Source: Deltaproteobacteria bacterium
Lineage (GTDB): Bacteria; Desulfobacterota; SM23-61
Direction: 5' to 3'
Assembly (NCBI GenBank): GCA_016875165.1
Contig: VGSF01000002.1
Span: 33,033 to 97,032 of the forward strand
DNA length: 64,000 nt
Part shown: in pieces, positions 18,323-64,000 of the stretch
Position numbering within the stretch: the first letter of the stretch is position 1
How the letters are laid out: the number at the start of each line of letters is the position of its first letter
Notes under the pieces: generated by a model
What the model was told of the DNA's origin: nothing
The model's input: only the letters and a program-made list of their open reading frames with translations
Databases searched by the model: none
Translations under genes and position numbers: made by a program

Positions 18323-18736
18323 CTACAATTGCAAGAAATTTTTAATTAAACCCCAGTTTTCCAGATATTGCTCCAAGTGGCCTATATCTTGGACACGTAT
18401 CCTTCCAGCATAGTCTTTAACCCTGTCCACAGCTTCATCGACTACTTCTCTTGGCAAAATATAAAAATTTGCTGCCTTCATTCTGAATAGACTGCCTTTT
18501 TCAATGAAAACGATGAAATTAGAACCCCAATTTTGTATTAGTTTTTTTAAACTGCCCCTTTCCACCTGGATGGTGCAATCTATGTTTTTCGCACGATTAA
18601 TAGCTATTACATCCATTCTAACAATACCACCTGCAAAAGGGTCTGGAGGCAGCAAAGCGTCGATCCCAATTCCCTTGAGGTACCCCGCAACCATATACCG
18701 GATCCGTTCAAATTCAGCCATTCTATAATTTTTCAT
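18323..18736 (-). CDS. Hypothetical protein (137 aa)
   Basis: Its ATG lies 1 nt after the stop of the upstream 62-aa ORF (TAAAATG), which suggests a two-gene operon. No recognisable motif. Confidence 0.5.
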   Translation of the reverse strand: MKNYRMAEFERIRYMVAGYLKGIGIDALLPPDPFAGGIVRMDVIAINRAKNIDCTIQVERGSLKKLIQNWGSNFIVFIEKGSLFRMKAANFYILPREVVDEAVDRVKDYAGRIRVQDIGHLEQYLENWGLIKNFLQL

Positions 18737-18737
18737 T

Positions 18738-18926
18738 TTACCTAATCGCCCTGCGTAGTTGATCAACTTCCTGCCGCAAATTTTCAATTTCACCCTGCAT
18801 TTGGATAAGACCATGAGCTAAATTAGCAAGACCGTTATAAAGGTTATACTTTTCAGGTTCCGTTTGCGCCTGCCCAAACAAGCGGATGTTTTCTTCAAAA
18901 CATTTTAAAGCCCAATCCAGGTTCAT
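18738..18926 (-). CDS. Hypothetical small helical protein (62 aa)
   Basis: ORF tightly coupled to 18323-18736, with a coiled-coil-like C-terminus. Confidence 0.4.
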   Translation of the reverse strand: MNLDWALKCFEENIRLFGQAQTEPEKYNLYNGLANLAHGLIQMQGEIENLRQEVDQLRRAIR

Positions 18927-31317: not shown

Positions 31318-31341
31318 GAGTATTCCTTTTTGAAGGTCTAA

Positions 31342-31635
31342 TGCGGAGTTGAGCAGTGCCCCGGAGGGGCATCTGTTCGAACTCCTTGTTCTCCCCGAGC
31401 GGAGCGAGGGGAAGGAGTTCGAACCCTGCTCAACTCCGCATTCCCCCCTCGCTTCGCTCGGGGGGAATGGGCCGGATGAGCGGCGCATTCGCGTCCGTTC
31501 GATCCGGGTTGATGGGCCGCGCTTCGCGGACCATCAACCCTCCGCTAATCCGGCCCAATGGCACGACGCGAAGCGTCGGGCCATCGCAAAAATCAGCGGT
31601 GGCTGTAAGCCATCCGCTGGAGTGACAGGTTATCT
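31342..31635 (-). repeat. Composite attC-like repeat (modules M1-M2-M3-M4)
   Basis: M1 is the palindrome aatgcggagttgagcag...ctgctcaactccgcatt. M2 is cccccc-N11-gggggg. M3 is gggccggatgagcgg...ccgctaatccggccc plus cgacgcgaagcgtcg. M4 is cagcgg-N15-ccgctgg next to the AGATAAC box. Confidence 0.7.
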
Positions 31636-31648
31636 GAATCCTTTCCCA

Positions 31649-32005
31649 TCAATAATTTATACTAATTTTCTCAGTAAACTTATTCAGGGTTTTATCGAGG
31701 GTCCAAAGGAGAACACTTGTTAATACAGCGGATGCAATCAGATGGACATCTATATAGCCTAACCCCTTTCCCATCAGTTGATTATTCTTAATGAATTTTA
31801 AGACTTCTTCATCTTCGGATAAAATCATCATTGGGAGGGATTGAAGATAGGTAAGGATTTCATGTCTATGCTTGAGATTCCCACAGGCAAGCTCTCCAAC
31901 AATAAATGGGTGGCATACAACTTCTCCGTCATATAGTAATTTCTGAAGTTCTTCATTTCCGTAACGCAGGTGAGAAACCCATACCGAGGTATCAACAAGA
32001 ACCAA
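31649..32005 (-). CDS. vapC: VapC PIN-domain toxin (cassette)
   Basis: MVLVDTSVWVSHL... with PIN acidic residues. Starts 1 nt after the vapB stop. Confidence 0.8.
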   Translation of the reverse strand: MVLVDTSVWVSHLRYGNEELQKLLYDGEVVCHPFIVGELACGNLKHRHEILTYLQSLPMMILSEDEEVLKFIKNNQLMGKGLGYIDVHLIASAVLTSVLLWTLDKTLNKFTEKISINY

Positions 32006-32006
32006 T

Positions 32007-32204
32007 TTATTTCTCTGCTATTCTCCGGCGCGGTATCATTTTCAGTTCCTTTTCCGTTCCGCCCAGTTTTGCAAGCCTCTTGCTGCTTTCCATTGCAATT
32101 AATGCCTCCAACCCAAGCTTGACAAGGGTTGTTTTTTCTTTGATACCTGTCAGCTTCGAAACCTTCTTGATTAGGTTGTCTTCGATGTTTAAGGTCGTCC
32201 TCAT
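32007..32204 (-). CDS. vapB: VapB-type antitoxin (cassette)
   Basis: MRTTLNIEDNLIKKVSKLTGIKEKTTLVKLGLEALI, with a GGAGG RBS before the ATG at 32204. Confidence 0.75.
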   Translation of the reverse strand: MRTTLNIEDNLIKKVSKLTGIKEKTTLVKLGLEALIAMESSKRLAKLGGTEKELKMIPRRRIAEK

Positions 32205-32273
32205 ATTAGCCTCCGAGAAATTTATATGTATCAATATGCACGATTCATGCATATTTTGTCAAGAAATTATTAA

Positions 32274-32345
32274 TGATAACGTGCCGCATCACCGGCCGGC
32301 GGAAGCGAAGCTGGAGCCGGTCCGTTGTGCATGCGGTTGTTATGC
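32274..32345 (-). other. Canonical 72-bp attC site
   Basis: Minus strand reads GCATAAC ... imperfect hairpin ... GTTATCA. Extra (bulged) bases sit on the R''-proximal arm, as in characterised attC sites. Confidence 0.7.
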
Positions 32346-32362
32346 CATGCTCTCTTTCGTGG

Positions 32363-32623
32363 CTACTTCAACTTCGCTCGGCACTGAAGCAGAAGTTCCT
32401 CGGCTTTTTCCTTGCCGAACGTCCTCACCATCTCTTCCCACATGGGCGATTTCCTGATGCTCTCCTGGAATTTCTTCGTCATTTCTTCCAATTGGTCTGG
32501 TGATGGCGCTGTTCCTGAGGAGAGAAGGTGCATCCCTTCATCGTCCATCCAGGTGAGTGGTGGGAGGGTTGGTGGGGTCGCAGCTCGATTGGCCTTCTTG
32601 GTTTTCTTTTTGATCTTTTTCAT
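32363..32623 (-). CDS. Hypothetical cassette protein (86 aa)
   Basis: ORF between the TTATGCC cassette start and its own attC. Lys-rich N-terminus, no family recognised. Confidence 0.45.
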   Translation of the reverse strand: MKKIKKKTKKANRAATPPTLPPLTWMDDEGMHLLSSGTAPSPDQLEEMTKKFQESIRKSPMWEEMVRTFGKEKAEELLLQCRAKLK

Positions 32624-32642
32624 ATCGTCGTTTCTGGCATAA

Positions 32643-32812
32643 TGCGGAGTTGAGCAGTGCCCCGGAGGGGCATCTGTTCGAACTCCTTGTTCTCCCCGAG
32701 CGGAGCGAGGGGAAGGAGTTCGATACGGCTCAACTCCGCATTCCCCCCGAGCGGAGCGAGGGGAAGGAGTTCGATACGGCTCAACTCCGCATTCCCCCCG
32801 AGCGGAGCGAGG
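32643..32812 (-). repeat. Composite repeat (M1 with internal partial duplication, plus M2)
   Basis: The segment ccccccgagcggagcgaggggaaggagttcgatacggctcaactccgcatt occurs twice in tandem. Confidence 0.7.
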
Positions 32813-32876
32813 GGGGAACGTTGCGCTTCAGCGGGGCGCTCTTTTTTTGCGTCCGACTGAAAGCGCTTGGTTATGC
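32813..32876 (-). other. Canonical-size attC (64 bp) of the 171-aa cassette
   Basis: Minus strand reads GCATAAC (overlapping the ORF stop) ... hairpin ... GTTCCCC. Confidence 0.6.
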
Positions 32877-33386
32877 ATAGATTTTTACAGCTTGATGAAA
32901 TTTGCCAAGCTTTTCATGGAACTGTTTTTGTTGACCCGTCGAGGGAAAAAAAACTACTACGCCGTTGTTTTGAACTGTGAATCCTAGTTGCTTCAATCGT
33001 GGCTCCAGAATCCTGCATATATTTGATTTTACCAATATAATCGGTATTTGTTTGCCTGCACATGCTTTTTCAAGGTCTTCTACTAAATTGCTAAAATCGC
33101 GTAGGATCACATCATTTCTTTTCTTCCCTTTTAGTTCATTAACAGGCTGGTATGTTGCGTCTAGAAGCAAATACCCTGCCTTTTGAAATAATTTGAGTCC
33201 TCCTTCTTTATTTTTTGCTGTAACACCCAACAGTTTCATCATTTCTGCGAAAAGTGGCTCAGATGTCTTCCCACTTTCGTCATAAAAATACAACCCCGAA
33301 GCTGGCGGAGATTCTAATACAAAAATATATCTTAAGTTGTCAGGAAGATATTTATTTCTATGATGTAGGTAATACTCTCTTTTCAT
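32871..33386 (-). CDS. Hypothetical cassette protein (171 aa)
   Basis: Clean ORF filling one cassette. It faintly resembles the uracil-DNA-glycosylase fold (VLESPPASG, LLDATYQP), but this is not secure. Confidence 0.5.
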   Translation of the reverse strand: MKREYYLHHRNKYLPDNLRYIFVLESPPASGLYFYDESGKTSEPLFAEMMKLLGVTAKNKEGGLKLFQKAGYLLLDATYQPVNELKGKKRNDVILRDFSNLVEDLEKACAGKQIPIILVKSNICRILEPRLKQLGFTVQNNGVVVFFPSTGQQKQFHEKLGKFHQAVKIYA

Positions 33387-33413
33387 GGCACCCCCAATTG
33401 ACTATGTGCATAA

Positions 33414-33583
33414 TGGGCCGGATGAGCGGCGCATTAGCGTCCGTTCGATCCGGGTTGATGGGCCGCGCTTCGCGGACCATCAACCCTCCGCTCATCCGGC
33501 CCAATGGCACGACGCGAAGCGTCGGGCCATCGCCGAAGCTCAGCGGCGTGCGTCAGCATGTCCGCTGGAGCGACTTGTTGGCT
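33414..33583 (-). repeat. Composite attC-like repeat (M3-M4)
   Basis: Same M3 and M4 modules as 31342-31635, without M1/M2. Bounded by AGCCAAC (minus) and ggcccA|TTATGCA. Confidence 0.7.
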
Positions 33584-33734
33584 TCAATTTTCTCGGAGGA
33601 AGACGGATGACTTTATGTCCAGAAGCGACCTGAACGGAACGTAGGTCGGCGCAAATCGCGGAGAGGTCGCCACGAAATTTTCGAGTATGCACCATTCGAT
33701 TCTTGCGCACTTCCTCAACAATTAAGTCCTTCAT
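33540..33734 (-). CDS. Hypothetical small protein, putative partner of the PIN-like gene (cassette)
   Basis: ATGA overlap with the upstream ORF. The C-terminus runs into the attC-like repeat. Confidence 0.45.
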   Translation of the reverse strand: MKDLIVEEVRKNRMVHTRKFRGDLSAICADLRSVQVASGHKVIRLPPRKLKPTSRSSGHADARR

Positions 33735-34213
33735 TTTTCAACCTCCAACAGTTCTTCAGGCGAGCAAATTTCAGGGCAGGCATATCCCTCGTTTTCGACA
33801 ATCTGTCTCACCATCCTTCGGGTGAAGGGGTTATTCAGGTGAGCAAAATTCCACGTGATGACAACCTCGATACCATTGACTGCCGCCACAGCAATATGAA
33901 GAGCGTCTTCTGGATATTGTGCAGGTATTCCCTTTTTGGCGATAATCTTTTCGGCGAGCATTCGCGCCTCGTCGTCAATGTCGAGCATAGGGAATGGCTC
34001 AATTGCCGCAAGCCTCATTTAGACTTGCTCTGAAGCCCCTCTTCTGGCTTCTTCAACAAAGACGAGTGCTGAAATGTAGGTTTCATATTTGGCAAGCAAC
34101 TTAGGCCAAAGCTCACGCGTGGCCTCTTGATGCCCAGCAACCATGATGTCGCGGCTCGGCTTGGCAGTGAGATAACTTACCACAGTGGTTTCAATGTATA
34201 GTCGTTTTTTCAT
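33731..34213 (-). pseudogene. PIN-like nuclease gene interrupted by an in-frame TAA
   Basis: MKKRLYIETTVVSYLTAKPSRD...GASEQV*MRLAAIE...DALHIAVAAVNGIEVVITWNFAHL reads as one PIN-like protein across the stop at 34019-34021. Confidence 0.55.
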
Positions 34214-34279
34214 AATCAGGTTATCAGATGTTTTAGATTTTCTCCCCAAAAAATCTTACATTCTTGCATAGAAAGCCAA

Positions 34280-34532
34280 TGCGGAGTTGAGCAGTGCCCC
34301 GGAGGGGCATCTGTTCGAACTCCTTGTTCTCCCCGAGCGGAACGAGGGGAAGGAGTTCGAACCCTGCTCAACTCCGCATTCCCCCCGAGCGAAGTGAGGG
34401 GGGAATGGGCCGGATGAGCGGCGCATTTGCGTCCGTTCGATCCGGGTTGATGGGCCGCGCTTCGCGGCCCATCAACCCTCCGCTCATCCGGCCCAATGGC
34501 ACGACGCGAAGCGTCGGGCCATCAAGTTATTC
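34280..34532 (-). repeat. Composite attC-like repeat (M1-M2-M3)
   Basis: Near-identical to the modules at 31342-31570. Bounded by GAATAAC (minus) and ccgcA|TTGGCTT. Confidence 0.7.
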
Positions 34533-38411: not shown

Positions 38412-38487
38412 AGGTTATTTAATGCGTCGGTATTAATTCGGAGTTCGGAATTTAGGAGTTAAAATTTTTAACCTTAGAACTTAGAAC

Positions 38488-38751
38488 TTTTGTAACACTT
38501 TAGTTCTTTGAAGAAAGGTTTGTCGCCAGGGCCAAGGGATTCCAGGGCCCGGGGGCCAGGCCGGCCTGCTTGGAATCATAAGGCGCTGGTTTCTCCTTGG
38601 AGGAGGCGGGGAAAATACCCCCGCCTCCTCTGGAGGAAACGAGCTTTGATCCTCGGGGACAAGGGGCAACCCAACCGATGCTTCCGGCGCGGGGCGGCCT
38701 GGCCCCCGGGCCCAAACAGAGACGTTATCACCATTTTTCAAAACTCTAAAG
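38488..38751 (-). repeat. ~270-nt structured repeat family R2, copy A
   Basis: Aligns end to end with 42075-42346 (reverse complement). An 18-bp stem forms between GGGCCCGGGGGCCAGGCC (38545-38562) and GGCCTGGCCCCCGGGCCC (38696-38713). Confidence 0.8.
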
Positions 38752-41972: not shown

Positions 41973-42074
41973 AAAAATACTCACCGCAGAGATCGCAGAG
42001 CGCGCAGAGGTAAAATTGGATCAAAAAAGCTAAAATAAATTTTAGAATCTGATGGCATTACAATTTTGGATCAA

Positions 42075-42346
42075 TTTAGCGGTTTGAAAAAGTGGTTTTA
42101 CCACCTTTGTTGAGGTCCGGGGGCCTGGGTGGAACGCGCCGGAAGCATCGGCTGGGTTCCCGCTTGGCCACGAAGAACCACGCTCGTTTCCGTCGGAGGA
42201 GGGGGGGGGCGTTTTCCCCGCCCCACCCGCGAAGAGATCAACGCCTTATGATTCCAATCCCGCCATGGCGGGACCAGGCCCCCGGACCATGGATTCCCTC
42301 TGACCTTACGCCTCACCTCTTTTCAAAGGGCTAAAGTGTTACAAAA
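42075..42346 (+). repeat. ~270-nt structured repeat family R2, copy C
   Basis: A perfect 15-bp stem forms between GGTCCGGGGGCCTGG (42114-42128) and CCAGGCCCCCGGACC (42274-42288). Conserved core cgcgccggaagcatcgg.tgggtt and cgccttatgattccaa; 3' end ctaaagtgttacaaaa. Confidence 0.8.
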
Positions 42347-42456
42347 TTTTGGATTATGGTTTGGACACTTGATATTCGAATCTTGATTATGTTTCTCTCT
42401 GCGTTCAGAGCGTACTCCGCGGTTAAAGAATTTAACGAAGAAGTGAAGGGAGGCTT

Positions 42457-43213: not shown

Positions 43214-43347
43214 CTTCGCATAAATAATGGAACGCTGTGCCGCACTTAAATTGCCCCACTCACCTTTCTCCTCTCCCCCCAAAAGGGGGGAGAGGGCGGG
43301 GTGAGGGGGGAATAGTAGAACGGATGAAGCTCCATTACTTTTGCGAA
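43214..43347. repeat. MITE with TIR CTTCGCATAAATAATGGAAC and a G/C palindrome interior
   Basis: cttcgcataaataatggaac ... gctccattacttttgcgaa. Interior ccactcacctttctcctctcccc...ggggagagggcggggtgagggg. Confidence 0.65.
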
Positions 43348-44705: not shown

Positions 44706-45464
44706 ATGAAAAAAATTTTTATTATTCCATTATTAATAATATTTCTTTTGGGTTTTTCAGGAATCAGTGGTGGAACTCCAATAAATCAGGTTCCTTATGC
44801 ATCTTTGACGGGATCGGGGTTAGTAACATTCGATGATATTCCGGGTGGCTGGGCGCCTGGAACAAACTACGATGCGATAATTAAGTTTTATGAAGCCGAC
44901 TTTGGAGAACGATTTGTAGGACAAACTCTTTTAACAAGTGGTGATTTTGATATTCTTTCCGGTTCTCCAACGGGCCCCCTTAGCTTAGCTGCAGGGGCTC
45001 CCAACCAGAATTTGAATGTCTTTTTAGCCACCTCTGGTGGTATTACTTCGCAAGTTCTTGCTGGGTTAGGGCCAAAAGAATATCCAAATTTTAAGGCAAT
45101 TGGCGAGGGATCAATTGCTGTACTTTTCCATTATGATCAATCTGATTTCGGATTCAGGATTTTAGGCGGCAATGAGGGAGATGCTTATCTCTCCTTTTTC
45201 CGTCGAGATGGCTCATTAATTCAAGACATCACCCTGAGTGGTCTTAGCAATAGTACTTTCTATGGTTTTCAAAGAGAGGGTGGCATTAAAGATATTGGCG
45301 GGATATCGATTTATAACACTGATCCTGGCGGTATTGCTTTTGATTCTTTTATAGATGATGTACCAGCAGGAGCAGGTCAATCTGCCCCCGAACCCGCCAC
45401 CCTGATCCTTCTAGGTTCCGGTCTACTTGGGCTTGCTGGGTTCAGGAGGAAGTTTAAAAAATAA
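44706..45464 (+). CDS. PEP-CTERM sorting-domain secreted protein
   Basis: N-terminal signal peptide. The C-terminus is PEPATLILLGSGLLGLAGFRRKFKK. Confidence 0.85.
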   Translation: MKKIFIIPLLIIFLLGFSGISGGTPINQVPYASLTGSGLVTFDDIPGGWAPGTNYDAIIKFYEADFGERFVGQTLLTSGDFDILSGSPTGPLSLAAGAPNQNLNVFLATSGGITSQVLAGLGPKEYPNFKAIGEGSIAVLFHYDQSDFGFRILGGNEGDAYLSFFRRDGSLIQDITLSGLSNSTFYGFQREGGIKDIGGISIYNTDPGGIAFDSFIDDVPAGAGQSAPEPATLILLGSGLLGLAGFRRKFKK

Positions 45465-45717
45465 ATTAATATTCAAATGTCAAAGAACAAAGGCGGGGTC
45501 AGAAATGGCTCTGCCTTTTTTTTCCATGCTCCCTAACCCCGCTCCTTTCCTAACCTACAAGCTCCCTTCCCCAATTTTTCTCCAAATCTTTTTTTATAAA
45601 GTATGGTAATATTTACCCATAGGGAGCCTGGACCACATGGTGGGGATCTGTCCACCGACGTGAAGTCAATTAGGGTCAGCGCCTATGCACCGGCACGTAA
45701 GAAAGGAGGATCTGCCC

Positions 45718-46032
45718 ATGGAGGATAAACCAGTAGCAAATCCCATGGTAGTACTCAGGGAAGAATTTGATGACTGGGCAATCCTGTTTGATCCGGATAC
45801 AGCCCAAGCATATGGACTTAATCCTGTGGGCGTATTCGTATGGAAGCGGCTTGACGGCAACCACACCTTAAGCGAAATTTTACAGGAATTACGGGCAACC
45901 TGCGAGGATTCCCCGGCAGAAGCCAATGATCATATGAATAATTTTGTGAAAAAATTGGTGGAAAAGGGATTAGCGGGGTATGAGATAACCAAGGTGGATC
46001 ATCTCCAAATACCACATGGAGAACCAGGATGA
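45718..46032 (+). CDS. PqqD-family peptide chaperone (RRE)
   Basis: Start MEDKPVANP lies 8 nt after AGGAGG. LNPVGVFVWKRLDGNHTLSEILQEL pattern. ATGA overlap with the next gene. Confidence 0.75.
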   Translation: MEDKPVANPMVVLREEFDDWAILFDPDTAQAYGLNPVGVFVWKRLDGNHTLSEILQELRATCEDSPAEANDHMNNFVKKLVEKGLAGYEITKVDHLQIPHGEPG

Positions 46033-47144
46033 AGTTGATGGCCGCCCCCAGGTTTGTCGATATTGACATCATAAGCAAATGCAATCTTAAGTGCCTTTAT
46101 TGCGCCCATTTTACAAGCGCCGGGGATGTAGAAAGCGATCTGCCGACAGATGCATGGCTCAACTTCTTTGAGGAGCTTGGCCGCTGCGCGGTAATGATTG
46201 CATCTCTTGGCGGTGGTGAGCCGTTCTTACGGAAGGATTTAAAGGAACTGCTTCTGGGGATTGTCAAAAATCGGATGCGTTTCGCAATCTTGAGCAATGG
46301 CACGTTAATTACGGAAGAGATCGCTGCTTTTATAAAAGCAACCGGCCGGTGCAATTATGTTCAAGTCTCCATTGACGGTTCGGGCCCTCTTGCCCATGAG
46401 GTTTACAGGGGCGAGGGGAATTTTGAGCGGACAATGAATGGCCTAAGAGTCCTACAGAAGTACGGGGTGCCTGTTACAGCGCGGGTTACCATACACCGAC
46501 ATAACGTCCATGACCTTGAGGGGATTGCCAGGCTGTTACTGGAAGATACTGGGCTTCCGTCTTTTTCAACGAACGCGGCTTCCTATATGGGGCTGTGCAG
46601 GCAAAATACCGAGGAGGTGCAGCTTACCGTCGATGAAAGAACCCTTGCTATGGAAACTCTTTTAAAGCTAGGTAAAAAATACAACGGCCGCATTACTGCG
46701 AATGCCGGACCGCTGGCAGAGGCGCGGATGTGGACGGAGATGGAAAGGGCGCGAAGAGAAGGTAAAGAAAGCCTTCCGGGAAGGGGCTATTTGCGGTCAT
46801 GCGGCGGGGTGTTCAGCAAGATCGCAGTTCGTGCGGATGGGGTGATTGTCCCTTGTATCCAGATGGGCCACATTGACCTGGGGCAAGTGGAGGAGGACAA
46901 TCTCAGGGATGTCTGGCAGAACCATGCAGCGCTGAATTGTTTGAGACAACGGCAGGGTATTCACCTGGGTGATTTTGAATTTTGCGCGGGCTGTGTTTAT
47001 ATCCCGTTCTGTTCAGGGAATTGTCCCGCCCTCGCTTATAATCTCCTCGGCAAGGAAAACCATCCCAGCCCGGATGCATGTCTGCGGCGGTTTCTGGCAG
47101 AAGGAGGAAGACTGCCAATGGAACAAGCATTGGCATTGCTTTAA
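46029..47144 (+). CDS. Radical SAM / SPASM-domain peptide maturase 1
   Basis: CNLKCLYC (Cx3Cx2C). C-terminal SPASM Cys clusters CGGVFSKIAVRADGVIVPC and CAGCVYIPFCSGNCPA. Confidence 0.85.
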   Translation: MKLMAAPRFVDIDIISKCNLKCLYCAHFTSAGDVESDLPTDAWLNFFEELGRCAVMIASLGGGEPFLRKDLKELLLGIVKNRMRFAILSNGTLITEEIAAFIKATGRCNYVQVSIDGSGPLAHEVYRGEGNFERTMNGLRVLQKYGVPVTARVTIHRHNVHDLEGIARLLLEDTGLPSFSTNAASYMGLCRQNTEEVQLTVDERTLAMETLLKLGKKYNGRITANAGPLAEARMWTEMERARREGKESLPGRGYLRSCGGVFSKIAVRADGVIVPCIQMGHIDLGQVEEDNLRDVWQNHAALNCLRQRQGIHLGDFEFCAGCVYIPFCSGNCPALAYNLLGKENHPSPDACLRRFLAEGGRLPMEQALALL

Positions 47145-47145
47145 A

Positions 47146-47201
47146 CCCCCTCACCTTTATCCTCTCCCCCGATTTGGGGGGAGAGGGGAGGGTGAGGGGG
47201 G
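47146..47201. repeat. G/C nested-palindrome REP-like insert between the two rSAM genes
   Basis: ccccctcacctttatcctctccccc gattt ggggggagaggggagggtgagggggg. Confidence 0.7.
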
Positions 47202-47227
47202 CTCAATAATAGGAAGCAGGAGCATAC

Positions 47228-48325
47228 ATGACATCGGGAAGCTCTTCTTTTCCTCTCGGAATGGTCTATTTCTACCTCACCGAGGGGTGTAATCTCCGTT
47301 GCCGGCACTGCTGGATAAATCCGAAATACCAATCGGGGGATAGAGCCTCTCTGGCGCTGGATTTTGAGTTGTTCTGCCATATCATCAGGCAGGCAAAGCT
47401 GCTGGGATTAGACGGCGTGAAGCTTACCGGTGGAGAGCCGTTAATCCATCCGGATATAGACCGGATCCTAACTTTTCTAGGCTCAGAGGAGATAAGAGTT
47501 ACGGTTGAGACGAACGGATTACTCTGCACAAAGGAAATTGCCAAAAGCATAAGCAAATGCAAAACTCCCTTTGTTTCGGTGAGTCTTGACGGGGCAGAGG
47601 CGGAAACTCACGAATGGGTGCGCGGTGTAGACGGCTCATTTGAGGCGGCGATTCAAGGCATCCGCAACCTTGTAACTGCAGGGCTAAGACCTCAGGTCAT
47701 CCTGACGGTGATGAGGCGCAACAAAGACCAAATGGAAGGGGTTGTCCGTCTTGCGGAGTCGCTCGGCGCCGGCTCGGTAAAATTCAACATCGTTCAGCCT
47801 ATTTCCAGGGGTGAACACCTGAAAGAGGCAGGTGAGTCCCTAAGGATAAATGAGCTGGTGGAGCTTGGAAGGTGGGTAGAAAATATCCTCTCCAGGGACG
47901 CTAAACTACGTCTGATATACAGTCATCCCCCTGCTTTTAAGCCTTTAGGTAATATCTTCGGTAAAGAAGGGGACGGTTGTGGGATATGCAGAATACGTAA
48001 CATCATAGGGGTATTATCGAACGGTTGCTATGCGATGTGCGGGATAGGTGAAACGGCGCCCGATTTAGTCTTTGGACAGGCTGAAAGGGACTGCCTTGAG
48101 GAGGTATGGAATGATACTCCTTTGCTGCTTGAGCTTCGCAAGGGACTTCCGGAGAGACTGGGAGGCATTTGCGGGGGTTGTGTCATGAAAAGGCTCTGCC
48201 TGGGGAACTGTATTTCCCAGAACTATTATAGCAATAAAAATTTGTGGGCTCCGTTTTGGTATTGTGAGGAGGCGCGGAGCGCGGGGCTGTTTCCGAAAAG
48301 CAGATTGGAAGAAACCGCTGGTTAA
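47228..48325 (+). CDS. Radical SAM / SPASM-domain peptide maturase 2
   Basis: CNLRCRHC (Cx3Cx2C). SPASM clusters CGICRIRNIIGVLSNGCYAMC and CGGCVMKRLCLGNC. Confidence 0.85.
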   Translation: MTSGSSSFPLGMVYFYLTEGCNLRCRHCWINPKYQSGDRASLALDFELFCHIIRQAKLLGLDGVKLTGGEPLIHPDIDRILTFLGSEEIRVTVETNGLLCTKEIAKSISKCKTPFVSVSLDGAEAETHEWVRGVDGSFEAAIQGIRNLVTAGLRPQVILTVMRRNKDQMEGVVRLAESLGAGSVKFNIVQPISRGEHLKEAGESLRINELVELGRWVENILSRDAKLRLIYSHPPAFKPLGNIFGKEGDGCGICRIRNIIGVLSNGCYAMCGIGETAPDLVFGQAERDCLEEVWNDTPLLLELRKGLPERLGGICGGCVMKRLCLGNCISQNYYSNKNLWAPFWYCEEARSAGLFPKSRLEETAG

Positions 48326-48438
48326 ATATCTTAAAAGAGCAGAAACAAGAACCCAGGATAATCCCGCTCGATTGGGAATTAGGAGTTGGCAGAAAAAATT
48401 TTAAACCTATTCGAAATCCAACATCAGGGTGGCATGGA

Positions 48439-49368
48439 ATGAACGGTTATTTTCTCAGGCTGTCAGACGGCCAGGCCTGGCAACTTATGGCGCCCCCGGG
48501 GAGAAGAGAAGCGTCTGATTTTTTAAAAAAATTTGCTTCCATAATGGAATTGAAGCCCTCCGGGCCATACGATATTGAAAAAATATTGTTTTGCGGCCAG
48601 GATGATTTCCTTTCCATCAAAGACGGCTGTACGAAAAAATACCTGGGTTCTGGGTCGGGGGAAGGCGATAATGGATGGTTTGTGTATGACCACAAAAATC
48701 TAAGGGTTTGGAATCACGCCCAGATCCCCGAGGTGATCTGTGAAATATGCGATAACGGCAGGGATGACGTAGAAATCCTAAATATGTGGTTTGCCCTGCA
48801 ACCAATTTTTCAGAAAGCGCAAAACAGAGGGGGGCTGCCCATGCACGCTGCCCTGCTCGAACTGGCCGGGAAGGGAATACTTATATCTGCTCCGGGGAAT
48901 ACTGGCAAGTCTACCTGCTGCCGCCGCGTCCCAGGTTACTGGAAGGCTCTTTGCGATGATGAGACCCTCATTGTGCACAGCAAGAAGGAAGGTTACCGGG
49001 CACATCCTTTTCCAACCTGGAGCGATTATCTGTGGAGAAACTCGCAAAAGAGGTGGCCTGTAGAATCCTCAGTCCTCCTTTCGGCAATCTTCTTTCTGGA
49101 ACAGGCTGAAGCAACCGAAATTTTAGCGATCGGTAAAGGTGAAGCAGCAGCATTGATCAATCAGTCAACCAACCAGGTATGCGAGAAGTTCTGGAGACCA
49201 TCAGATAAAGCAACCAAGACCATGCAGGTGAAAAGGCTCTTGGATAACGCTTGCGAAATGGCCAAGAAAGTGCCAGCCTATAAGCTACGGGCCAGCTTGA
49301 ACGGCAGGTTCTGGGAAGAAATAGAACGGGTATTACGGGTGGCCCAGGGGATTGAACAACTGGGGTAG
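48439..49368 (+). CDS. HPr-kinase-related P-loop protein (ScmC/HprK-like)
   Basis: HAALLELAGKGILISAPGNTGKSTCC resembles the HprK C-terminal kinase-domain P-loop. Confidence 0.6.
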   Translation: MNGYFLRLSDGQAWQLMAPPGRREASDFLKKFASIMELKPSGPYDIEKILFCGQDDFLSIKDGCTKKYLGSGSGEGDNGWFVYDHKNLRVWNHAQIPEVICEICDNGRDDVEILNMWFALQPIFQKAQNRGGLPMHAALLELAGKGILISAPGNTGKSTCCRRVPGYWKALCDDETLIVHSKKEGYRAHPFPTWSDYLWRNSQKRWPVESSVLLSAIFFLEQAEATEILAIGKGEAAALINQSTNQVCEKFWRPSDKATKTMQVKRLLDNACEMAKKVPAYKLRASLNGRFWEEIERVLRVAQGIEQLG

Positions 49369-49370
49369 AC

Positions 49371-49514
49371 TTAGAACTTGTCCGTAAATAATATTCCCCC
49401 CTTTGCAAAGGGGGGCGAGGGGGGATTTTGATCAGGAATCCCAAGGTAAATCCCCCTATGTCCCCCTTTTTCAAAGGGGGATTCAAGATCGCGACTTATT
49501 TAAGAATAAGCTCT
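49371..49514 (+). repeat. ~145-bp MITE 'E', copy 1
   Basis: TIR agaacttgtccgtaaataat ... acttatttaagaataagctct. Interior cccctttgcaaagggg and cccctttttcaaagggg hairpins. Near-identical to 52411-52560. Confidence 0.75.
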
Positions 49515-49563
49515 TACTTTCGAAAGCATTGCGCCTGGGGAAGAAGGATTAAAAAGCGAAGGG

Positions 49564-50226
49564 ATGGACGAGGTAAAGGCAAAGGAAACGCATCTTGGAG
49601 AGGGTGCTTCTCAAGCTCGGGGCTGGCCTGGTTTAACTTACTCCGGGCCGAGCATGCATCCGATTTTCAAAGCCGCTGATTGGCTGATCGTCCGCCCTTA
49701 TGCAAAAAAAGAAATAAAAGCAGGTGATGTGGTGGTTTTCCGTCGCCCTGGCGAAGTACATAGAGTTGTTCACAGGGTTGTGGAGGCCAACATATCGGGT
49801 ATTATTACCCGGGGTGATAATAACAATACCAATGACCCATGGATATTAAAATCCGAAGATATTATCGGGCGTGTGGTATCCGCAAAGAGAAGAAACAAAA
49901 CCCTTAAAGTGCATGGTGGTAAGACAGGCATCCTGTTGTCGATAATATGGAGGGTAAAGAAACTCTTCGCCAATAGATTATCTTTGGCATTACATCCTGC
50001 CTATCACGGGCTCGTGAATGCTGGCTTCTTTCACAGATGGTTATCCCCTTTCGTGAGAGCGAAAATACTGTATTTTCATCGGCCTAATGGCACGGAGATG
50101 CAACTGGTTCTTGGTCGGCGGGTGATCGGGAGGCGCATGCCTGGAACAACCAGGTGGCTGATAACTCGGCCTTTCAGGTTGTTCATCGATGAGTCTTCAT
50201 TACCGCAAAGTAATACTGATGGTTAA
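49564..50226 (+). CDS. S26-family (Sec11/archaeal-type signal peptidase I-like) peptidase
   Basis: GPSMHP (Ser nucleophile), HRVV, RGDNNNTND. Confidence 0.7.
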   Translation: MDEVKAKETHLGEGASQARGWPGLTYSGPSMHPIFKAADWLIVRPYAKKEIKAGDVVVFRRPGEVHRVVHRVVEANISGIITRGDNNNTNDPWILKSEDIIGRVVSAKRRNKTLKVHGGKTGILLSIIWRVKKLFANRLSLALHPAYHGLVNAGFFHRWLSPFVRAKILYFHRPNGTEMQLVLGRRVIGRRMPGTTRWLITRPFRLFIDESSLPQSNTDG

Positions 50227-50357
50227 AACCTTTTCAGTTCATTCAATGAGCAAATGCCCCGGAATTTAAAATCTACCAGGGTAAAATAAGGCAGAGGGCA
50301 GGATAACAGAGAGGAGGACGCAAGAGGAACTGATGCGAAAAGGCGGAAGGTTACTCG

Positions 50358-51593
50358 ATGGATGAGAATAGAATCAAGGAATTATTAGTCAGTTGCCTAA
50401 GAAGGGAAGATGGCAGCTCAAAGATTGAGAAACTAAGCAAACTATCGACCCCTGATTGGGAAACCATCGTAAAATCATCAATCAGGCACGATCTTGCCCC
50501 ATTGTTTTATCACAGGTTAAAACCTCTTATACCGGAGATACATTTGCCTGCAAGCATTGCCGACAAATTAAGGGAAATTTATCTGCGTTCTGTGGCAAGA
50601 AATATTCGCATGTACAAGCAGCTATCGGAGTTCATAATGGCGCTTTGGGGCGCAGGGATTCAGGTAATCCCTTTAAAAGGGGCGCACCTTGCCAAATTCG
50701 TGTATGGGAATGTCGCTTTAAGACCGATGTCCGATGTGGACCTCCTTGTAAGGAGGGAAAATATGCCAAAGGTATGTGAAATATTAGTTGGAAAAGGATA
50801 TACCCATGCCGGGCATTTAAATATTCACGAAACCTGCGAGGTATTCCAACACCTTCCCCCTTTTGAGAAACCCGGGGGATTGGCTATGGAACTTCATTGG
50901 AATCTCGAGACTCCGACTTATCCCCTTAGGATTGATGTGGAAGGATTATGGGAAAGGGCCCAAATTTCCTCATTAGACGGCATCGATGTGCCTACTTTAT
51001 CCCCGGAAGATCAATTACTCCATCTTTGCCTGCATGTTTCCCTCCACCATGGTTTTGCCAACGGGCTGAAAGCATTATGCGATATAAACGAAATCATTGA
51101 ACGTTACAGGGGCAACATGGACTGGGGAAAAATAATAGATAGAAGCCAAAAATGGGCTGCAAACAAATGCGTGTTTATAACCATGCTCCAGGCAAAAAAC
51201 CTCATCGGCGCGCCAGTTCCCGATGCCGTATTAAATCAACTCAAACCTGAAAAATCAGATTATTCCAATATGGAAGCGCTTTCTAAGGAACTTATTTTTA
51301 GGGGCGGCACCAACCTTTCACCTCATATTGCTCGCTTATGGGGGCAATACCGGGGCATTGACAAATTGAAGATTTTTATCAAGCGGGTTTTCCCGGTCAT
51401 CGAAGAGATGGCTGCGATGTATCCTGTTTCATCAAGATCCATGAAGGTTTACCTATACTACCCAAATCGTTTAAAAGATCTCCTTTTTAGACATGGCCGC
51501 CATGTAAAGCGTTTATTCCTGCATGACCAAGAAATGTCAACCTGCCTTCAAATTGGAAACATGCAAAACAGGCTAAAGGACTGGCTTCTATAA
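50358..51593 (+). CDS. Uncharacterised nucleotidyltransferase family protein (NTP_transf_5-like)
   Basis: 411 aa with MSDVDLLV and an ELHWNL pattern recalled for the PF14907-type family found in lasso/HprK-associated clusters. Confidence 0.55.
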   Translation: MDENRIKELLVSCLRREDGSSKIEKLSKLSTPDWETIVKSSIRHDLAPLFYHRLKPLIPEIHLPASIADKLREIYLRSVARNIRMYKQLSEFIMALWGAGIQVIPLKGAHLAKFVYGNVALRPMSDVDLLVRRENMPKVCEILVGKGYTHAGHLNIHETCEVFQHLPPFEKPGGLAMELHWNLETPTYPLRIDVEGLWERAQISSLDGIDVPTLSPEDQLLHLCLHVSLHHGFANGLKALCDINEIIERYRGNMDWGKIIDRSQKWAANKCVFITMLQAKNLIGAPVPDAVLNQLKPEKSDYSNMEALSKELIFRGGTNLSPHIARLWGQYRGIDKLKIFIKRVFPVIEEMAAMYPVSSRSMKVYLYYPNRLKDLLFRHGRHVKRLFLHDQEMSTCLQIGNMQNRLKDWLL

Positions 51594-51784
51594 ATTTGGC
51601 CAAAGCGCTCGGCATAGGCCTTCTTTTCGGCTCGAACAAAATGGGCTTTCAAAAAGGGTGGTAAAAGTTGACTGGGTATGCTACAAAATGATTTATAAAT
51701 GACCCTTATTTTCGTGAGCTTTTTTAAAGGAAATTGCCGTGAGAGCCAGAGAGCGCATAGCTGAGCTATGAAAGGAGGAGGAAT

Positions 51785-51937
51785 ATGGAGAGAAAGGCCG
51801 AAGACAACAAGGAGAAAGAGGAGAAGATGACATATGAGCCTCCGGAGTTAATTGATTTGTCAGGAGAGGTAGCAAAGGGGGAATGTTCTTTTGGATCAGT
51901 GCCTAATGGTGGATGCACCGCGGGGGTCCTTAACTAA
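51785..51937 (+). CDS. Candidate RiPP precursor peptide (51 aa; not in the supplied ORF track)
   Basis: MERKAEDNKEKEEKMTYEPPELIDLSGEVAKGECSFGSVPNGGCTAGVLN. A strong RBS AAAGGAGGAGG ends ~4-5 nt before the ATG. Charged leader, YEPPELIDL motif, and a Gly/Cys-rich 19-aa C-terminus. Confidence 0.55.
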   Translation: MERKAEDNKEKEEKMTYEPPELIDLSGEVAKGECSFGSVPNGGCTAGVLN

Positions 51938-52410: not shown

Positions 52411-52560
52411 TTAAGAACTTGTCCGTAAATAGAATTCCCCCCTTTGCAAAGGGGGGGCGAGGGGGGATTTTGCTCGGAAATCCCAAATCAAACAAATCCC
52501 CCTATGTCCCCCTTTTTCAAAGGGGGATTTAAAACCACGACTTATTTAAGGATAAGCTCT
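52411..52560 (+). repeat. ~145-bp MITE 'E', copy 2
   Basis: Same orientation and near-identical sequence to 49371-49514. Confidence 0.75.
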
Positions 52561-52655: not shown

Positions 52656-53378
52656 TTATTTAACAATATGTTTGTCGGTGCTCTGGGGTTCCTTATCAGA
52701 AAGTTTTTGCAATTTTTTTAGGATGTCATCCAGATAGCTCTCGTATGTGGCCAGGCGGGTTTTTGTTTTACACACCTCTTCGACCAAATGCGCCATTTTT
52801 ATGGCAATAGAAACATGGTAGGCAAAGCTGGAAAAGAATTGCAAACTTTTCTCGTTGAAACTGTACTTTTCATTGATTAGCACCGCACTGAGTACCCCTT
52901 TCATTTTCCCCTGAGGGGGAATGGGAATACTCATGAGGGAAGTGATTTTCGATTCTTTTCCCCTATATTGAAAAAATCCCGAGAAATCCTCTGGTTGTCG
53001 CAACAACACTGGGCTGTTCTGCTGGAAGGCTTTATAGGCTACCTCCTTTTCTTCATTTAGACCTACCTGCCCATATAGTGGATTAAAAGCATAGATAAAA
53101 TGGGTTTCCAGATTCTCGTTCTTCTCATCCACGAAAAAAATTGTAGAGCGGTCTGCCTTCAGGCAGTGCAGGGATTCCTGGGCAATGACTTCAAAGATTT
53201 TGTTTAGGTCTTTGTGGGCGTTGATCATAGAACTAATTTTCAAGAAAGCTGCCTCCAGACGCGTAACATACATCAACGCCTTCTTTCCCTTAAATTCTTG
53301 ATTGATAATCTCCCGCTTTGACAATTGTTTTAAAATGTTCTTAAAAAACATTTTATATGAACTTCCTTTTAACAACAT
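52656..53378 (-). CDS. GAF-domain-like protein
   Basis: 240-aa ORF. IFEVIAQESLHCLKADRSTIFFVDEK and the following segment are GAF-like. Weak assignment. Confidence 0.45.
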   Translation of the reverse strand: MLLKGSSYKMFFKNILKQLSKREIINQEFKGKKALMYVTRLEAAFLKISSMINAHKDLNKIFEVIAQESLHCLKADRSTIFFVDEKNENLETHFIYAFNPLYGQVGLNEEKEVAYKAFQQNSPVLLRQPEDFSGFFQYRGKESKITSLMSIPIPPQGKMKGVLSAVLINEKYSFNEKSLQFFSSFAYHVSIAIKMAHLVEEVCKTKTRLATYESYLDDILKKLQKLSDKEPQSTDKHIVK

Positions 53379-53963: not shown

Positions 53964-54856
53964 TCTTTGAAATATAGCCATATTTTTGTGCTACACCACT
54001 AGCCTATTAGTAGGCGAGTTAGCGGGGGTTTAACATTTTGAAGTCTAACAAAAAAGCATTCGCGGATCAAGATGAGATTTTTCATCCTTTGAGCTGGGTT
54101 AATAATAATCTTTTTCCCTCCCATAGAAACTATGCTTTTCCGCAACCTTGCGCGGAAAAAGTGGCCCGCCTCAGGCGGGCAACGAAAAGTCCTGAAATCC
54201 CCCCTAACCCCCCTTTGGCAAAGGGGGGAAGGGGGGATTTATCGGCAGACATTTCCTTCTTACAAACATGTTTGTATTAATGAGGCGCTAAGCGCCTATT
54301 ATTGATCGGTGAAAGGAAAATTGACTAATACCAAAAACCCTGATTCAAGTTTCGTCATAGATTCCTTCCTCAGGATCTTTCCATTCAGAAAAAGCGCTCT
54401 CTGATGCTTTGGAATATGCCATTGTCTCTAAATATTCATGTTATTTGAGATCTAATTCCAAAATCTCAGGCCCAGAAAAGGCCTACTGAGAGAATGGGCG
54501 CTTAAAAAGCTCGTCGGAGCAGTCGCTATCCTCTTAGTCTTTGTATAACCATATATTTGGGGTACCCACTCTAAATCCGGAAGGACCAATTATAAATTTC
54601 CGGGGAAAAAGGGATATCTTGCATTGCCTTATGAGGAAAAGGGGAACGTTGGATCTTAAACAACCAACAGAAAAAACAGGCCACAATTTTCAGGTGACAG
54701 GCTATTTGTGTAGTGTTTCAGTAATATATTTATATATACCGTTATCCCTGAGCTTGTCGAATGGTGAAATATTTCAATAGGTTCCTATCATGGTTCGACA
54801 AGCTCACCACGAACAGTGTGTAAAGGAATTTATGAATCATTATACTAGGACACAAA

Positions 54857-55279
54857 TTAAACGCCTTTTTCTCTTTGGAATAAGGAGTTCAAGGCTTCAA
54901 AAAACTTACCGATCTCATTATCCAAACTGGACCGGATTTGGGGCATGGCCAGGAGGAGTTTCTTAAGCTTTTGCCAATCGAGTTCAAACCCGTACCTTTT
55001 ACGAAATAAATGGCGGAACCCAAGATACTCACGAAGTTTCTTTTCCATCCTGGCAGTTATTACCTGCGGTCGCAGGCCGGGTATATCCAGAGTCATCTGG
55101 TGCAGGAGTTCGCTGTGCCATTCTTCTCCCACAGGTAATCGTTTGTCTACCTCTTTGGCAATACTTTCGAAAATTTTTTCAATACCCGTATAGAAATCGT
55201 GAAGAATCGATCCACCTGCGCGGACGACGTAGTTCGAAGGCTGTCTCTTTAAAAGAGGGTTTTTCTCTTTATCCAGCAT
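54857..55279 (-). CDS. HEPN-domain protein (HepT-like putative toxin)
   Basis: 140 aa with LGFRHLFRKRYG (R-x4-H-like HEPN region), downstream of a minimal nucleotidyltransferase. Confidence 0.55.
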   Translation of the reverse strand: MLDKEKNPLLKRQPSNYVVRAGGSILHDFYTGIEKIFESIAKEVDKRLPVGEEWHSELLHQMTLDIPGLRPQVITARMEKKLREYLGFRHLFRKRYGFELDWQKLKKLLLAMPQIRSSLDNEIGKFFEALNSLFQREKGV

Positions 55280-55326: not shown

Positions 55327-55674
55327 TTACGCAAGGCGCAATCCCTCCTTCAAAGCTCTATTTTTAATGGATGGCCACGCCTTCTCATAGGGAATTAGGT
55401 CTACATGAAAGGGATAGGAAATTAGTGAGATATCGGCCAGGATTTCAAAATATCTTTGATCTTCCAGCCCTCTAACGATCAAGTCAATATCTGTTCCTAT
55501 CCACAAAAAATCTGGCCTCCAGATGAGAGAACCAAAAAGAATTACTTCTTCAGCTTGATACTTCTCCTTAAGAGTCTTTGCCACCGCTTTGGCCTTCTTG
55601 ATAGCGAACTGTCTCCTTCTATTTTCTTCTTTCTGCCTTTCTTTCCAGATGCTGAAATATTCAGGATTTTTCAT
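55327..55674 (-). CDS. Minimal nucleotidyltransferase (MNT-type antitoxin)
   Basis: VILFGSLIW...GTDIDLIV (GS...DxD). The start is uncertain (ATG at 55674 or 55683; the listed 55737 is unlikely). Confidence 0.65.
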   Translation of the reverse strand: MKNPEYFSIWKERQKEENRRRQFAIKKAKAVAKTLKEKYQAEEVILFGSLIWRPDFLWIGTDIDLIVRGLEDQRYFEILADISLISYPFHVDLIPYEKAWPSIKNRALKEGLRLA

Positions 55675-55819
55675 AAGATACATTTTAGCATAACTCAGAA
55701 AAAAATAAAAAAGGCAATGTTTGTGTGTCCCTTTCATCCTTGCTTAATAAAAAAGGAGATGGTAAATTATTGGTTGTAACTCGCTGAAAAAGTAAAATAT
55801 TCTGGAGGATACATCTGCC

Positions 55820-56653: not shown

Positions 56654-56711
56654 CCGCAGAGACGGCCGGGAGCGCTAAGCAAAGAAATATTTATTTTATG
56701 GGACTTCGTTT

Positions 56712-56977
56712 TTTTGTAACACTTTAGTTCTTTGAAGAAAGGTGTGTCATTAGGGCCAAGGGATTCCAGGTCCCAGGGGACAGACCGGCTCGCTTGGAAT
56801 CATAAGGCGCTGATTTCTCCGTGGATGGGGCGGGGAAGATACCCCCCGCCTCCTCCGGCGGAAACGGGCTTTTATCCTCGATGACAAGGGGAAACCCAAC
56901 CGATGCTTCCGGCGCGTTCCGGCCTGGCCCCCGGGCCCAAACAGAGGCATTGCCGCCATTTTTAAGAAACTCTAAAC
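56712..56977 (-). repeat. ~270-nt structured repeat family R2, copy B
   Basis: Aligns with copies A and C. The long stem here has 2 mismatches and 2 positions that are G-U only in the copy-C orientation. Confidence 0.8.
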
Positions 56978-63849: not shown

Positions 63850-63864
63850 AATGAAAATAAAAAG

Positions 63865-64000
63865 TTTGTAACAGTTTAGCGGTGTGAAAAAGTGGTATAA
63901 AAGCCTTTGTTGAGAGCCGGGGGTTAGAGCGGAACGCGCCGGAAGCATCGGTTGGGTTTCCGCTTGGCCACGAAGACAGAAGATCTTTTCCTTCGGAGGA
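63865..64000 (+). repeat. ~270-nt structured repeat family R2, copy D (cut by window end)
   Basis: Begins tttgtaacagtttagcgg (a full 5' inverted copy of the 3' end ctaaagtgttacaaa) and carries the conserved cgcgccggaagcatcggttgggtt core. Confidence 0.75.

Follow-up and report, generated by a model that had tools for sequence, protein, structure and literature searches.

A probable SynChlorMet RiPP cassette with a short two-cysteine candidate precursor in a deltaproteobacterial contig

Which peptide-modifying system is encoded by a run of seven co-oriented forward-strand genes at positions 45718-51937 (~6.2 kb) of a 64-kb stretch of deltaproteobacterial contig VGSF01000002.1 (hereafter the window), and what might it make? 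The genes, taken from the listing of open reading frames (ORFs) and from direct reading, encode a PqqD-family protein, two radical S-adenosylmethionine (radical-SAM) enzymes, a P-loop protein, a peptidase, a nucleotidyltransferase (NTase) and a 50-aa peptide. The locus is read here, with a probability of roughly three in four, as a complete SynChlorMet (Scm) cassette for a peptide that is ribosomally synthesized and modified post-translationally (RiPP), consisting of scmD-scmE-scmF-scmC, an S26 peptidase, a PF14907 NTase and the precursor gene scmA. It is a new, compact member of a family that has been catalogued computationally and whose chemistry is uncharacterised.

Gene layout and family identity

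The features of the locus are the following, all on the forward strand.

45489-45518, +, terminator-like hairpin, a 13-bp stem then a T-run (consensus match only)
45718-46032, +, scmD, PqqD-family RiPP recognition element (RRE; peptide-leader chaperone), 104 aa (TIGR04248, PF05402)
46029-47144, +, scmE, radical-SAM/SPASM enzyme, 371 aa (TIGR04250, PF04055, PF13186)
47228-48325, +, scmF, second radical-SAM/SPASM enzyme, 365 aa (TIGR04251)
48439-49368, +, scmC, P-loop protein with the fold of phosphoenolpyruvate carboxykinase (PEPCK) and HprK, predicted phosphotransferase, 309 aa (TIGR04249)
49564-50226, +, soluble S26 (Sec11/SipW-type, Ser-His) peptidase, predicted leader peptidase, 220 aa (TIGR02228, PF00717, PF10502)
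50358-51593, +, PF14907 (NTP_transf_5) nucleotidyltransferase-fold protein, 411 aa (PF14907)
51785-51937, +, scmA-like candidate precursor peptide, 50 aa (ribosome-binding site, homologues, family profile)

Every ORF of a preliminary description of this stretch was found again on the same strand at the same coordinates, and the overlap of the scmD stop with the scmE start as ATGA was read directly. An AGGAGG at 45704-45709 lies 8 nt 5' of the scmD start, for which an alternative upstream ATG at 45685 would give a longer ORF. The scmA-like ORF follows a ribosome-binding site, AAAGGAGGAGG at 51771-51781, which ends 4 nt before the ATG and whose AGGAGG core lies 6 nt before it; an alternative start, M15, is located at 51827. 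The hairpin at 45489-45518, 3' of a PEP-CTERM gene, probably bounds the scm transcription unit on its 5' side. A sigma-70 scan returned fewer promoter-like sites than it did for shuffled sequence, with neither scmD nor scmA having one upstream, and Rfam at gathering thresholds gave no match in the 64-kb window.

Family membership was judged by the NCBIfam/TIGRFAM equivalog cut-offs, which stand at 100 bits for ScmD, 400 for ScmE, 400 for ScmF, 125 for ScmC and 35 for ScmA. ScmD matches TIGR04248 over its full length at 134.2 bits, while TIGR04250 is matched by ScmE at 603.5 bits (profile positions 1-358 of 358), TIGR04251 by ScmF at 571 bits (positions 1-353 of 353) and TIGR04249 by ScmC, whose relatives carry Pfam PF27840, at 304 bits (positions 1-292 of 292); at equivalog level, all four core proteins belong to the Scm families. 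The peptidase scores 71 bits against TIGR02228 (archaeal-type signal peptidase I; cut-off 51.85), the NTase 204.5 bits against PF14907 (cut-off 31.2) and ScmD 57.6 bits against PF05402, its next-best NCBIfam match being the lasso-peptide PqqD chaperone at 30 bits. These NCBIfam and Pfam scans with hidden Markov models (HMMs) bore out all domain calls of the preliminary description. It had also matched the gene set to either SynChlorMet or GeoRSP; the former stands, with four models above cut-off, and the latter falls, since the radical-SAM enzymes reach 105 and 103 bits against TIGR04303 (cut-off 400) and the PqqD protein 19 bits against TIGR04302 (cut-off 100).

Two further assignments were rejected. 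For the systems of pyrroloquinoline quinone (PQQ) and mycofactocin, the best scores are 92 bits against PqqE (TIGR02109; cut-off 381) and 115 bits against MftC (TIGR03962; cut-off 265); for lasso peptides, no match to the Asn-synthetase-like cyclase (C) or the transglutaminase-like protease (B2) was found among the seven proteins, with the RRE and the YxxPxL motif as the common features. The genes expected of a sacti- or ranthipeptide locus, namely a radical-SAM/SPASM maturase, an RRE and a Cys-bearing core, are all present, and the radical-SAM enzymes score far under the cut-offs of the PapB, StsB, AlbA and SkfB models.

The cassette and its precursor family across genomes

The Scm cassette was followed through 80 loci from GTDB species representatives, retrieved by ScmC alignment, with the window proteins mapped by phmmer. 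These loci come from Desulfobacterota, Nitrospirota, Chlorobi, Aminicenantes, Omnitrophota, Saganbacteria, Bacillota, Methanocella, Methanothrix and Methanogenium, and more than 1,100 ScmC clusters at 90% identity are spread over Desulfobacterota, Nitrospirota, Chlorobi, Aminicenantes, Omnitrophota, Saganbacteria and methanogenic archaea. Complete cassettes number 48, that is, 47 complete GTDB loci and the relative L001 described below, with exporter and gene-order counts made on the 47 only. The order D-E-F-C-peptidase is kept in 30 of the 47; an S26 gene adjoins scmC in 51 of the 75 loci with room for it and is found in 45/48 complete cassettes, a PF14907 homologue in at least 26/48, and at least one precursor-like ORF in 45/48, the HMM used for the last count also catching W-x-x-P-x-L variants. 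From phylum to phylum, the cassette is accompanied by the peptidase, the NTase and the precursor family. The preliminary description had seen them as a local extension of a smaller cassette, a view that the counts across the 80 loci overturn, since they make the peptidase and the NTase ordinary cassette members. A fused ATP-binding cassette (ABC) exporter, present in 27/47 complete loci and in 32 loci in all, is an ordinary cassette member too.

The precursor candidate had been picked out as a small ORF behind a ribosome-binding site, and its homologues strengthen that choice. Its predicted leader, residues 1-32/33, contains the lasso-type YxxPxL motif as Y17-E-P-P-E-L22, and its predicted core of 18 residues, (E)C34-SFG-SVPNGG-C44-TAG-VLN, holds two C-x2-G-x3 units. 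Ten homologues of 49-53 aa occur in public data; across their alignment residues 1-32 are nearly invariant (MERKPEDNKEKxEKMTYEPPELIDLAGEVAKG) and the last 18 are hypervariable, with only C34, C44 and G47 kept. At the DNA level, conservation begins at the ribosome-binding site, spans the leader and collapses in the core. Such a near-invariant putative leader before a variable putative core is the classic pattern of a RiPP precursor. A family HMM was built from 92 cassette-linked peptides of other genomes, with the window peptide and its close relatives excluded; when run against 921 window ORFs it gave the window peptide 41.8 bits (E 3.8e-12) and the next best ORF 6.5 bits, leaving the peptide as its only match in the window, where no further precursor copies were found. 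The ten homologues and this independent match argue that the 50-aa ORF is no chance ORF, and by its sequence it belongs to the cassette-linked precursor family.

That family already has a name. One cassette peptide passes the NCBIfam model TIGR04252, 'SCM_precur_ScmA' (39.1 bits against the cut-off of 35), and three more match below cut-off, which ties the precursor set to ScmA; the earlier statement that the cassette has no defined substrate is therefore out of date. None of the ScmA peptides has a Pfam family. Small ORFs with Y-x-x-P-x-L and a Cys-rich tail number 59 at distances of up to 1.5 kb from a cassette, 33 of them with scmC as the next gene downstream; the remainder of these loci holds another 12, of which about four look genuine. 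The leader consensus is [YW]-[EQ]-K-P-x-L-[IV]-x-L, with the first Cys 11-14 residues past the motif; of 84 peptides, 64 have G/A at the second position before this Cys and 50 have A/G/S at the fourth. The core consists of 2-21 units of C-x2-G-[S/T/G]-x-[A/P]-x3 with a modal C-x9-C spacing; Gly occupies C+3 in 403 units, S/T occupies C+4 in 196 and C+5 in 175, and behind the last Cys the tail has a narrowly set length of 6-8 residues. The window peptide fits all of these rules, with 11 residues from L22 to C34, two Cys that are spaced as C-x9-C and each have a G at +3, and a tail of six residues behind C44. It also bears a charged 14-residue N-terminal extension. A profile of its close subfamily, searched against 1.84 billion representative proteins, returned one 50%-identity cluster and 22 more ScmA-like peptides, several of which carry similar Lys/Glu-rich N-terminal extensions.

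One set of ScmA-like peptides stands somewhat apart. At 11428-12484 and 18490-18918 of locus L012 they are very rich in Cys, with up to 21 Cys, CC pairs and irregular spacing, and may form a distinct sub-class.

This variability bears on whether the peptide might be consumed to make a small redox cofactor of the PQQ or mycofactocin type. The pairing of a PqqD protein with PqqE-like enzymes recalls such pathways, and PqqE and MftC are among the weaker matches of ScmE and ScmF; however, those matches lie far under their cut-offs, and the invariant cores of cofactor precursors contrast with a hypervariable core of between 2 and 21 Cys units, with several paralogous precursors to a locus and with an ABC exporter as a frequent cassette member. 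A cofactor pathway is scarcely credible on these grounds.

The position of the scmA-like gene invites another question, namely whether the ORF at 51785-51937 is a substrate at all. The enzymes could instead act on some other protein, such as the conserved PEP-CTERM protein encoded upstream, or on a precursor from a gene elsewhere, with the S26 enzyme as a housekeeping signal peptidase. The failure of TIGR04252 to match, the non-canonical position and the retention of the PEP-CTERM gene beside the cluster in L001 would all suit this idea, but the family HMM match and the leader/core pattern typical of a precursor speak against it, and the same gene follows the NTase in L001 and L002. PEP-CTERM genes are moreover absent from the 80 distant cassettes, the hairpin separates the PEP-CTERM gene from scmD, and the peptidase, which lacks a membrane anchor, is linked to scmC across phyla. 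That the ORF is no substrate is highly improbable. L001 is a relative at about 78% protein identity with the same eight genes in the same order and the peptide gene after the NTase; the same arrangement was found on several independent contigs and samples.

The enzymes and a proposed maturation route

The two radical-SAM enzymes have the Cx3Cx2C motif and the C-terminal Cys clusters that were previously pointed out. In ScmE, C18/C22/C25 are kept in 46/49 homologues and the seven SPASM Cys (C258, C276, C319, C322, C328, C332 and C351) in 49/49; in ScmF, C21/C25/C28 and the seven SPASM Cys (C254, C271, C315, C318, C324, C328 and C346) are invariant in 53 homologues. Since Cx3Cx2C falls within the first 30 residues, neither enzyme has a fused RRE. 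The nearest solved relatives are SkfB, BlsE and PqqE for ScmE and BlsE, PqqE, SkfB, SuiB and CteB for ScmF, all at low scores.

ScmC carries H136, G156-K157-S158-T159 and D173-D174, invariant across 24 diverse homologues, together with an invariant Walker-A motif G-x-T-G-K-S-T (G153-T159). When its family profile was searched against the sequences of the PDB, four HPr kinase/phosphorylases were the only matches, aligned exactly over the His, Walker-A and Asp-Asp motifs (E 0.05); the HprK residues at these positions are catalytic ones. The AlphaFold2 model (AF2; predicted local distance difference test, pLDDT, 91.3) has PEP carboxykinases as its top Foldseek matches (E 4e-8, TM about 0.5), and PEPCK and the HprK catalytic domain belong to one fold superfamily in structural classification. 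ScmC thereby shows the HprK-like constellation of a His, a Walker-A GxxGxGKS/T and an Asp-Asp pair on a PEPCK-like fold, in keeping with the resemblance to the HPr-kinase C-domain noted at the outset.

In the expanded Scm loci L045 (4518-11967), L068 (4832-9161) and L072 (9539-13863), 2-4 scmC paralogues accompany a single scmD/E/F set, and each adjoins its own scmA paralogue(s), which reach up to about 130 aa. This placing of duplicated scmC beside duplicated scmA suggests that ScmC is the substrate-specific component, and it fits direct, peptide-specific recognition by ScmC.

The peptidase keeps S30, H70-R71, G84-D85 and D91 in 59/59 cassette-linked homologues each and M31 in 58/59, and the best PDB matches of its AF2 model are human SEC11C and SEC11A, so that the Sec11-type label given to it earlier holds. 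The Ser/His pair and the GDN box of signal peptidase I are present; the N-terminal membrane anchor is not, as no hydrophobic segment was found in the protein (maximum KD(19) 0.97) and its ORF has no room for an upstream extension. Taken together, the catalytic residues, the SEC11 match and the missing anchor identify a soluble Ser-His (Sec11/SipW-type) S26 enzyme, whose C-terminus is extended by a conserved stretch of ~110 residues, a long helix and a β-sheet. Second, unrelated groups of radical-SAM, PqqD and S24/S26-like genes lie beside Scm cassettes in L017 (8837-11576), L078 (13657-19928) and L082 (12820-18697), and soluble S26-type peptidases may thus occur in more than one radical-SAM RiPP system. 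In the NTase, G108, D126-x-D128 and D242 are invariant in 19-33 homologues; a search of its profile against PDB sequences gave no informative relative, only a single meaningless 12.8-bit match.

A maturation route can be proposed from these parts. The 50-aa ScmA would be translated and its leader motif, Y17-x-x-P20-x-L22, bound by the stand-alone RRE ScmD, which would present the core to ScmE and ScmF; this role is assigned to ScmD because the motif is of the lasso type and its best non-Scm match is the lasso PqqD chaperone. YxxPxL is the motif bound by lasso-peptide RREs. ScmE and ScmF would then modify each heptad C-x2-G-x3, the chemistry being most likely of the sacti/ranthi type, with a thioether that joins the Cys sulfur to a carbon in one of the six residues that follow, and the second enzyme might install a second kind of link or modification. 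Each heptad is probably a self-contained modification unit, because only the Cys and the Gly at +3 are invariant and the last Cys needs six residues; rings of the i/i+3 and i/i+4 kinds exist in ranthipeptides. ScmC would phosphorylate the peptide with ATP, probably at a Ser/Thr hydroxyl, as HprK homologues do on Ser in lasso precursors (PMC8498205; PMC10368454). In pseudomycoidin, the adjacent nucleotidyltransferase puts hexoses on the phosphate (PMC8498205; PMC10368454), and where present the PF14907 NTase may likewise decorate the phosphoryl group further. The soluble Sec11-type S26 peptidase would cut off the leader at A30-K-G32↓E-C34, and in most genomes the ABC exporter would secrete the product, although the window locus has none. 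Signal peptidases prefer small residues at -3 and -1, and the A-K-G↓E-C junction, which has them, speaks for the soluble S26 enzyme as the one that takes off the leader. The Cys-based cross-links, the phosphoryl transfer assigned to ScmC and the leader removal assigned to the S26 enzyme are steps that we infer.

A different use of the same residues would yield lanthionine-like rings: ScmC would phosphorylate Ser/Thr at C+4/C+5, elimination would give dehydro-amino acids to which the Cys thiols add, and the radical-SAM enzymes would be left with epimerisation, C-C links or methylation. The HprK phosphotransfer residues kept in ScmC and the enrichment of Ser/Thr just past the invariant Gly (at C+4 and C+5, counted above) are compatible with this scheme. 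It is nevertheless unlikely, as the NCBIfam and Pfam scans found no lyase or cyclase homologue in the cassette, many units lack Ser/Thr, among them the second unit of the window peptide (CTAGVLN) and those of several close homologues, and the invariant residues are Cys and Gly(+3) only.

If the proposed route of radical-SAM cross-linking with phosphoryl transfer is followed to its end, Scm products would form a structurally new RiPP class, in which heptads are modified jointly by two SPASM enzymes, a phosphoryl group is added by an obligatory PEPCK/HprK-fold core enzyme (a nucleotidyl or glycosyl-phosphate where the NTase is present) and the leader is removed by a cytoplasmic Sec11-type S26 peptidase, with the two-unit window peptide as a minimal natural substrate. 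This proposal is a tentative one, to be held with somewhat less than even confidence. We know of no precedent for a Sec11-type S26 protease as a RiPP leader peptidase.

Comparison with known systems sets out what is shared and what would be new. With the SynChlorMet cassette the locus shares ScmD/E/F/C above cut-offs, the D-E-F-C order and an adjacent S26 peptidase, as in most cassettes; its peculiarities are a short, two-unit precursor of 50 aa with an N-terminal extension, encoded after the NTase and not between scmF and scmC and missed by TIGR04252, and the lack of an ABC exporter. Ranthi- and sactipeptide systems (PapB/freyrasin, CteB/SCIFF, SkfB, AlbA) likewise combine radical-SAM/SPASM enzymes with two auxiliary clusters and an RRE on Cys-containing repeat cores, whereas Scm has two paralogous radical-SAM enzymes and a stand-alone RRE, together with a PEPCK/HprK-fold protein as an obligatory part and a predicted leader peptidase of the S26 type, and its thioether is a prediction only. 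The systems of phosphorylated and phosphoglycosylated lasso peptides (paeninodin, pseudomycoidin, Bsf) and of 'HPr-rel-A' (TIGR04352/TIGR04353) share the set of PqqD-type RRE, HprK-like kinase and nucleotidyltransferase, and the preliminary description had rightly placed such kinases and nucleotidyltransferases in some lasso clusters (PMC8498205). The YxxPxL motif, too, is common to lasso leaders, where it covers positions -17 to -12 (PMC10368454), and Scm leaders, at about the same positions; Scm differs in having radical-SAM enzymes instead of the lasso cyclase and B2 protease, and ScmC is remote from the lasso kinases. PQQ (PqqD/PqqE) and mycofactocin (MftB/MftC) loci also couple a small RRE gene translationally to a SPASM radical-SAM gene, but have no counterpart to the hypervariable multi-unit core or to the exporter, peptidase, kinase-fold and NTase partners. 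Lastly, signal peptidases of the endoplasmic reticulum and archaea (Sec11, SipW; MEROPS S26B) share the Ser-His pair, the GDN box and the fold with the cassette peptidase, which differs in its missing transmembrane anchor, its C-terminal extension and its place in a RiPP operon.

Several results weigh against the proposed reading of the locus and its chemistry. At the level of the locus, TIGR04252 gave no match to the window peptide at E<=10, in full or from the M15 start (cut-off 35), its gene sits 3' of the NTase and away from the usual position upstream of scmC, palindromic repeats have entered both the scmE-scmF gap and the gap that separates scmC from the peptidase gene, and no ABC exporter was found in the 64-kb window, which leaves the activity of this copy unproven. 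At the level of chemistry, that of ScmE and ScmF is not readable from sequence, their non-Scm matches being spread at similar low scores across thioether, C-C cross-linking and haem-tailoring SPASM enzymes. The similarity of ScmC to HprK is remote (E 0.05 by profile, and 16.6 bits against the HprK-related kinase A model TIGR04352, cut-off 200), and a non-kinase ATP-dependent role is possible for ScmC. Ser/Thr at C+4/C+5 is frequent, not invariant, and does not track NTase presence: 35 loci and 16 loci compared by NTase presence showed no difference in Ser/Thr content, C-terminal residue or composition of the ScmA core. Searches of the literature library found no paper that mentions the SynChlorMet system, and PF14907 turned up in them only in an unrelated phosphonate paper.

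The repeats and the missing exporter also raise the matter of a decaying or silent copy, in which the reading frames are intact and the functional operon has been lost in the host organism. In L001 the genes are tightly packed, without the gaps that hold palindromic repeats here. However, none of the seven ORFs is truncated or has lost a catalytic residue, and the arrangement recurs on several independent contigs and samples, which makes a silent copy very unlikely. Intergenic repeat elements are common in functional operons.

The Scm cassette is widespread and has been catalogued for over a decade, and literature searches found no published substrate, product or function. Among the loci compared, the window locus has the smallest natural substrate, with its 18-residue two-Cys core, and one copy of each enzyme within 6.2 kb, a compact test case that suits heterologous reconstitution. 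Testable rules come out of the family comparison, for the leader motif, for the junction where cleavage is predicted and for the heptad, in which Cys and Gly are invariant. Should the chemistry turn out to be new, a RiPP class would be established, and Sec11-type peptidases and HprK/PEPCK-fold enzymes would gain a new role.

Neighbouring genes and repeats

Directly 5' of the cluster, a gene for a PEP-CTERM sorting-signal protein occupies 44706-45464 (+; TIGR02595, 24 bits against a cut-off of 16). It was rejected as a cluster member, being kept beside the cluster in close relatives such as L001 only and lying on the far side of the terminator-like hairpin from scmD. On the 3' side lie a GAF-domain gene at 52656-53378 (-) and a HepT-like and MNT-type nucleotidyltransferase pair of the toxin-antitoxin type at 54857-55279 (-) and 55327-55737 (-), the Pfam labels of this pair being taken from the identical contig L003.

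The intergenic palindromes are G+C-rich interspersed repeats, similar to repetitive extragenic palindromes (REP) or miniature inverted-repeat transposable elements (MITE), for example CCCCCCTTTGCAAAGGGGGG, and are located at 47146-47201, 43255-43310, 49373-49514, 52414-52560 and 54195-54230; translated, they yield false ORFs of the kind ...PPFAKGG... Four copies of an element of about 270 bp, without an Rfam match, lie at 38479-38743, 56703-56968, 42057-42349 (inverted) and 63857-64000; they are 73-87% identical, and two of them are inverted. Repeated units of 84 nt and 246 nt, up to 100% identical and with internal palindromes, are spaced 1-2 kb apart at 31339-34523.

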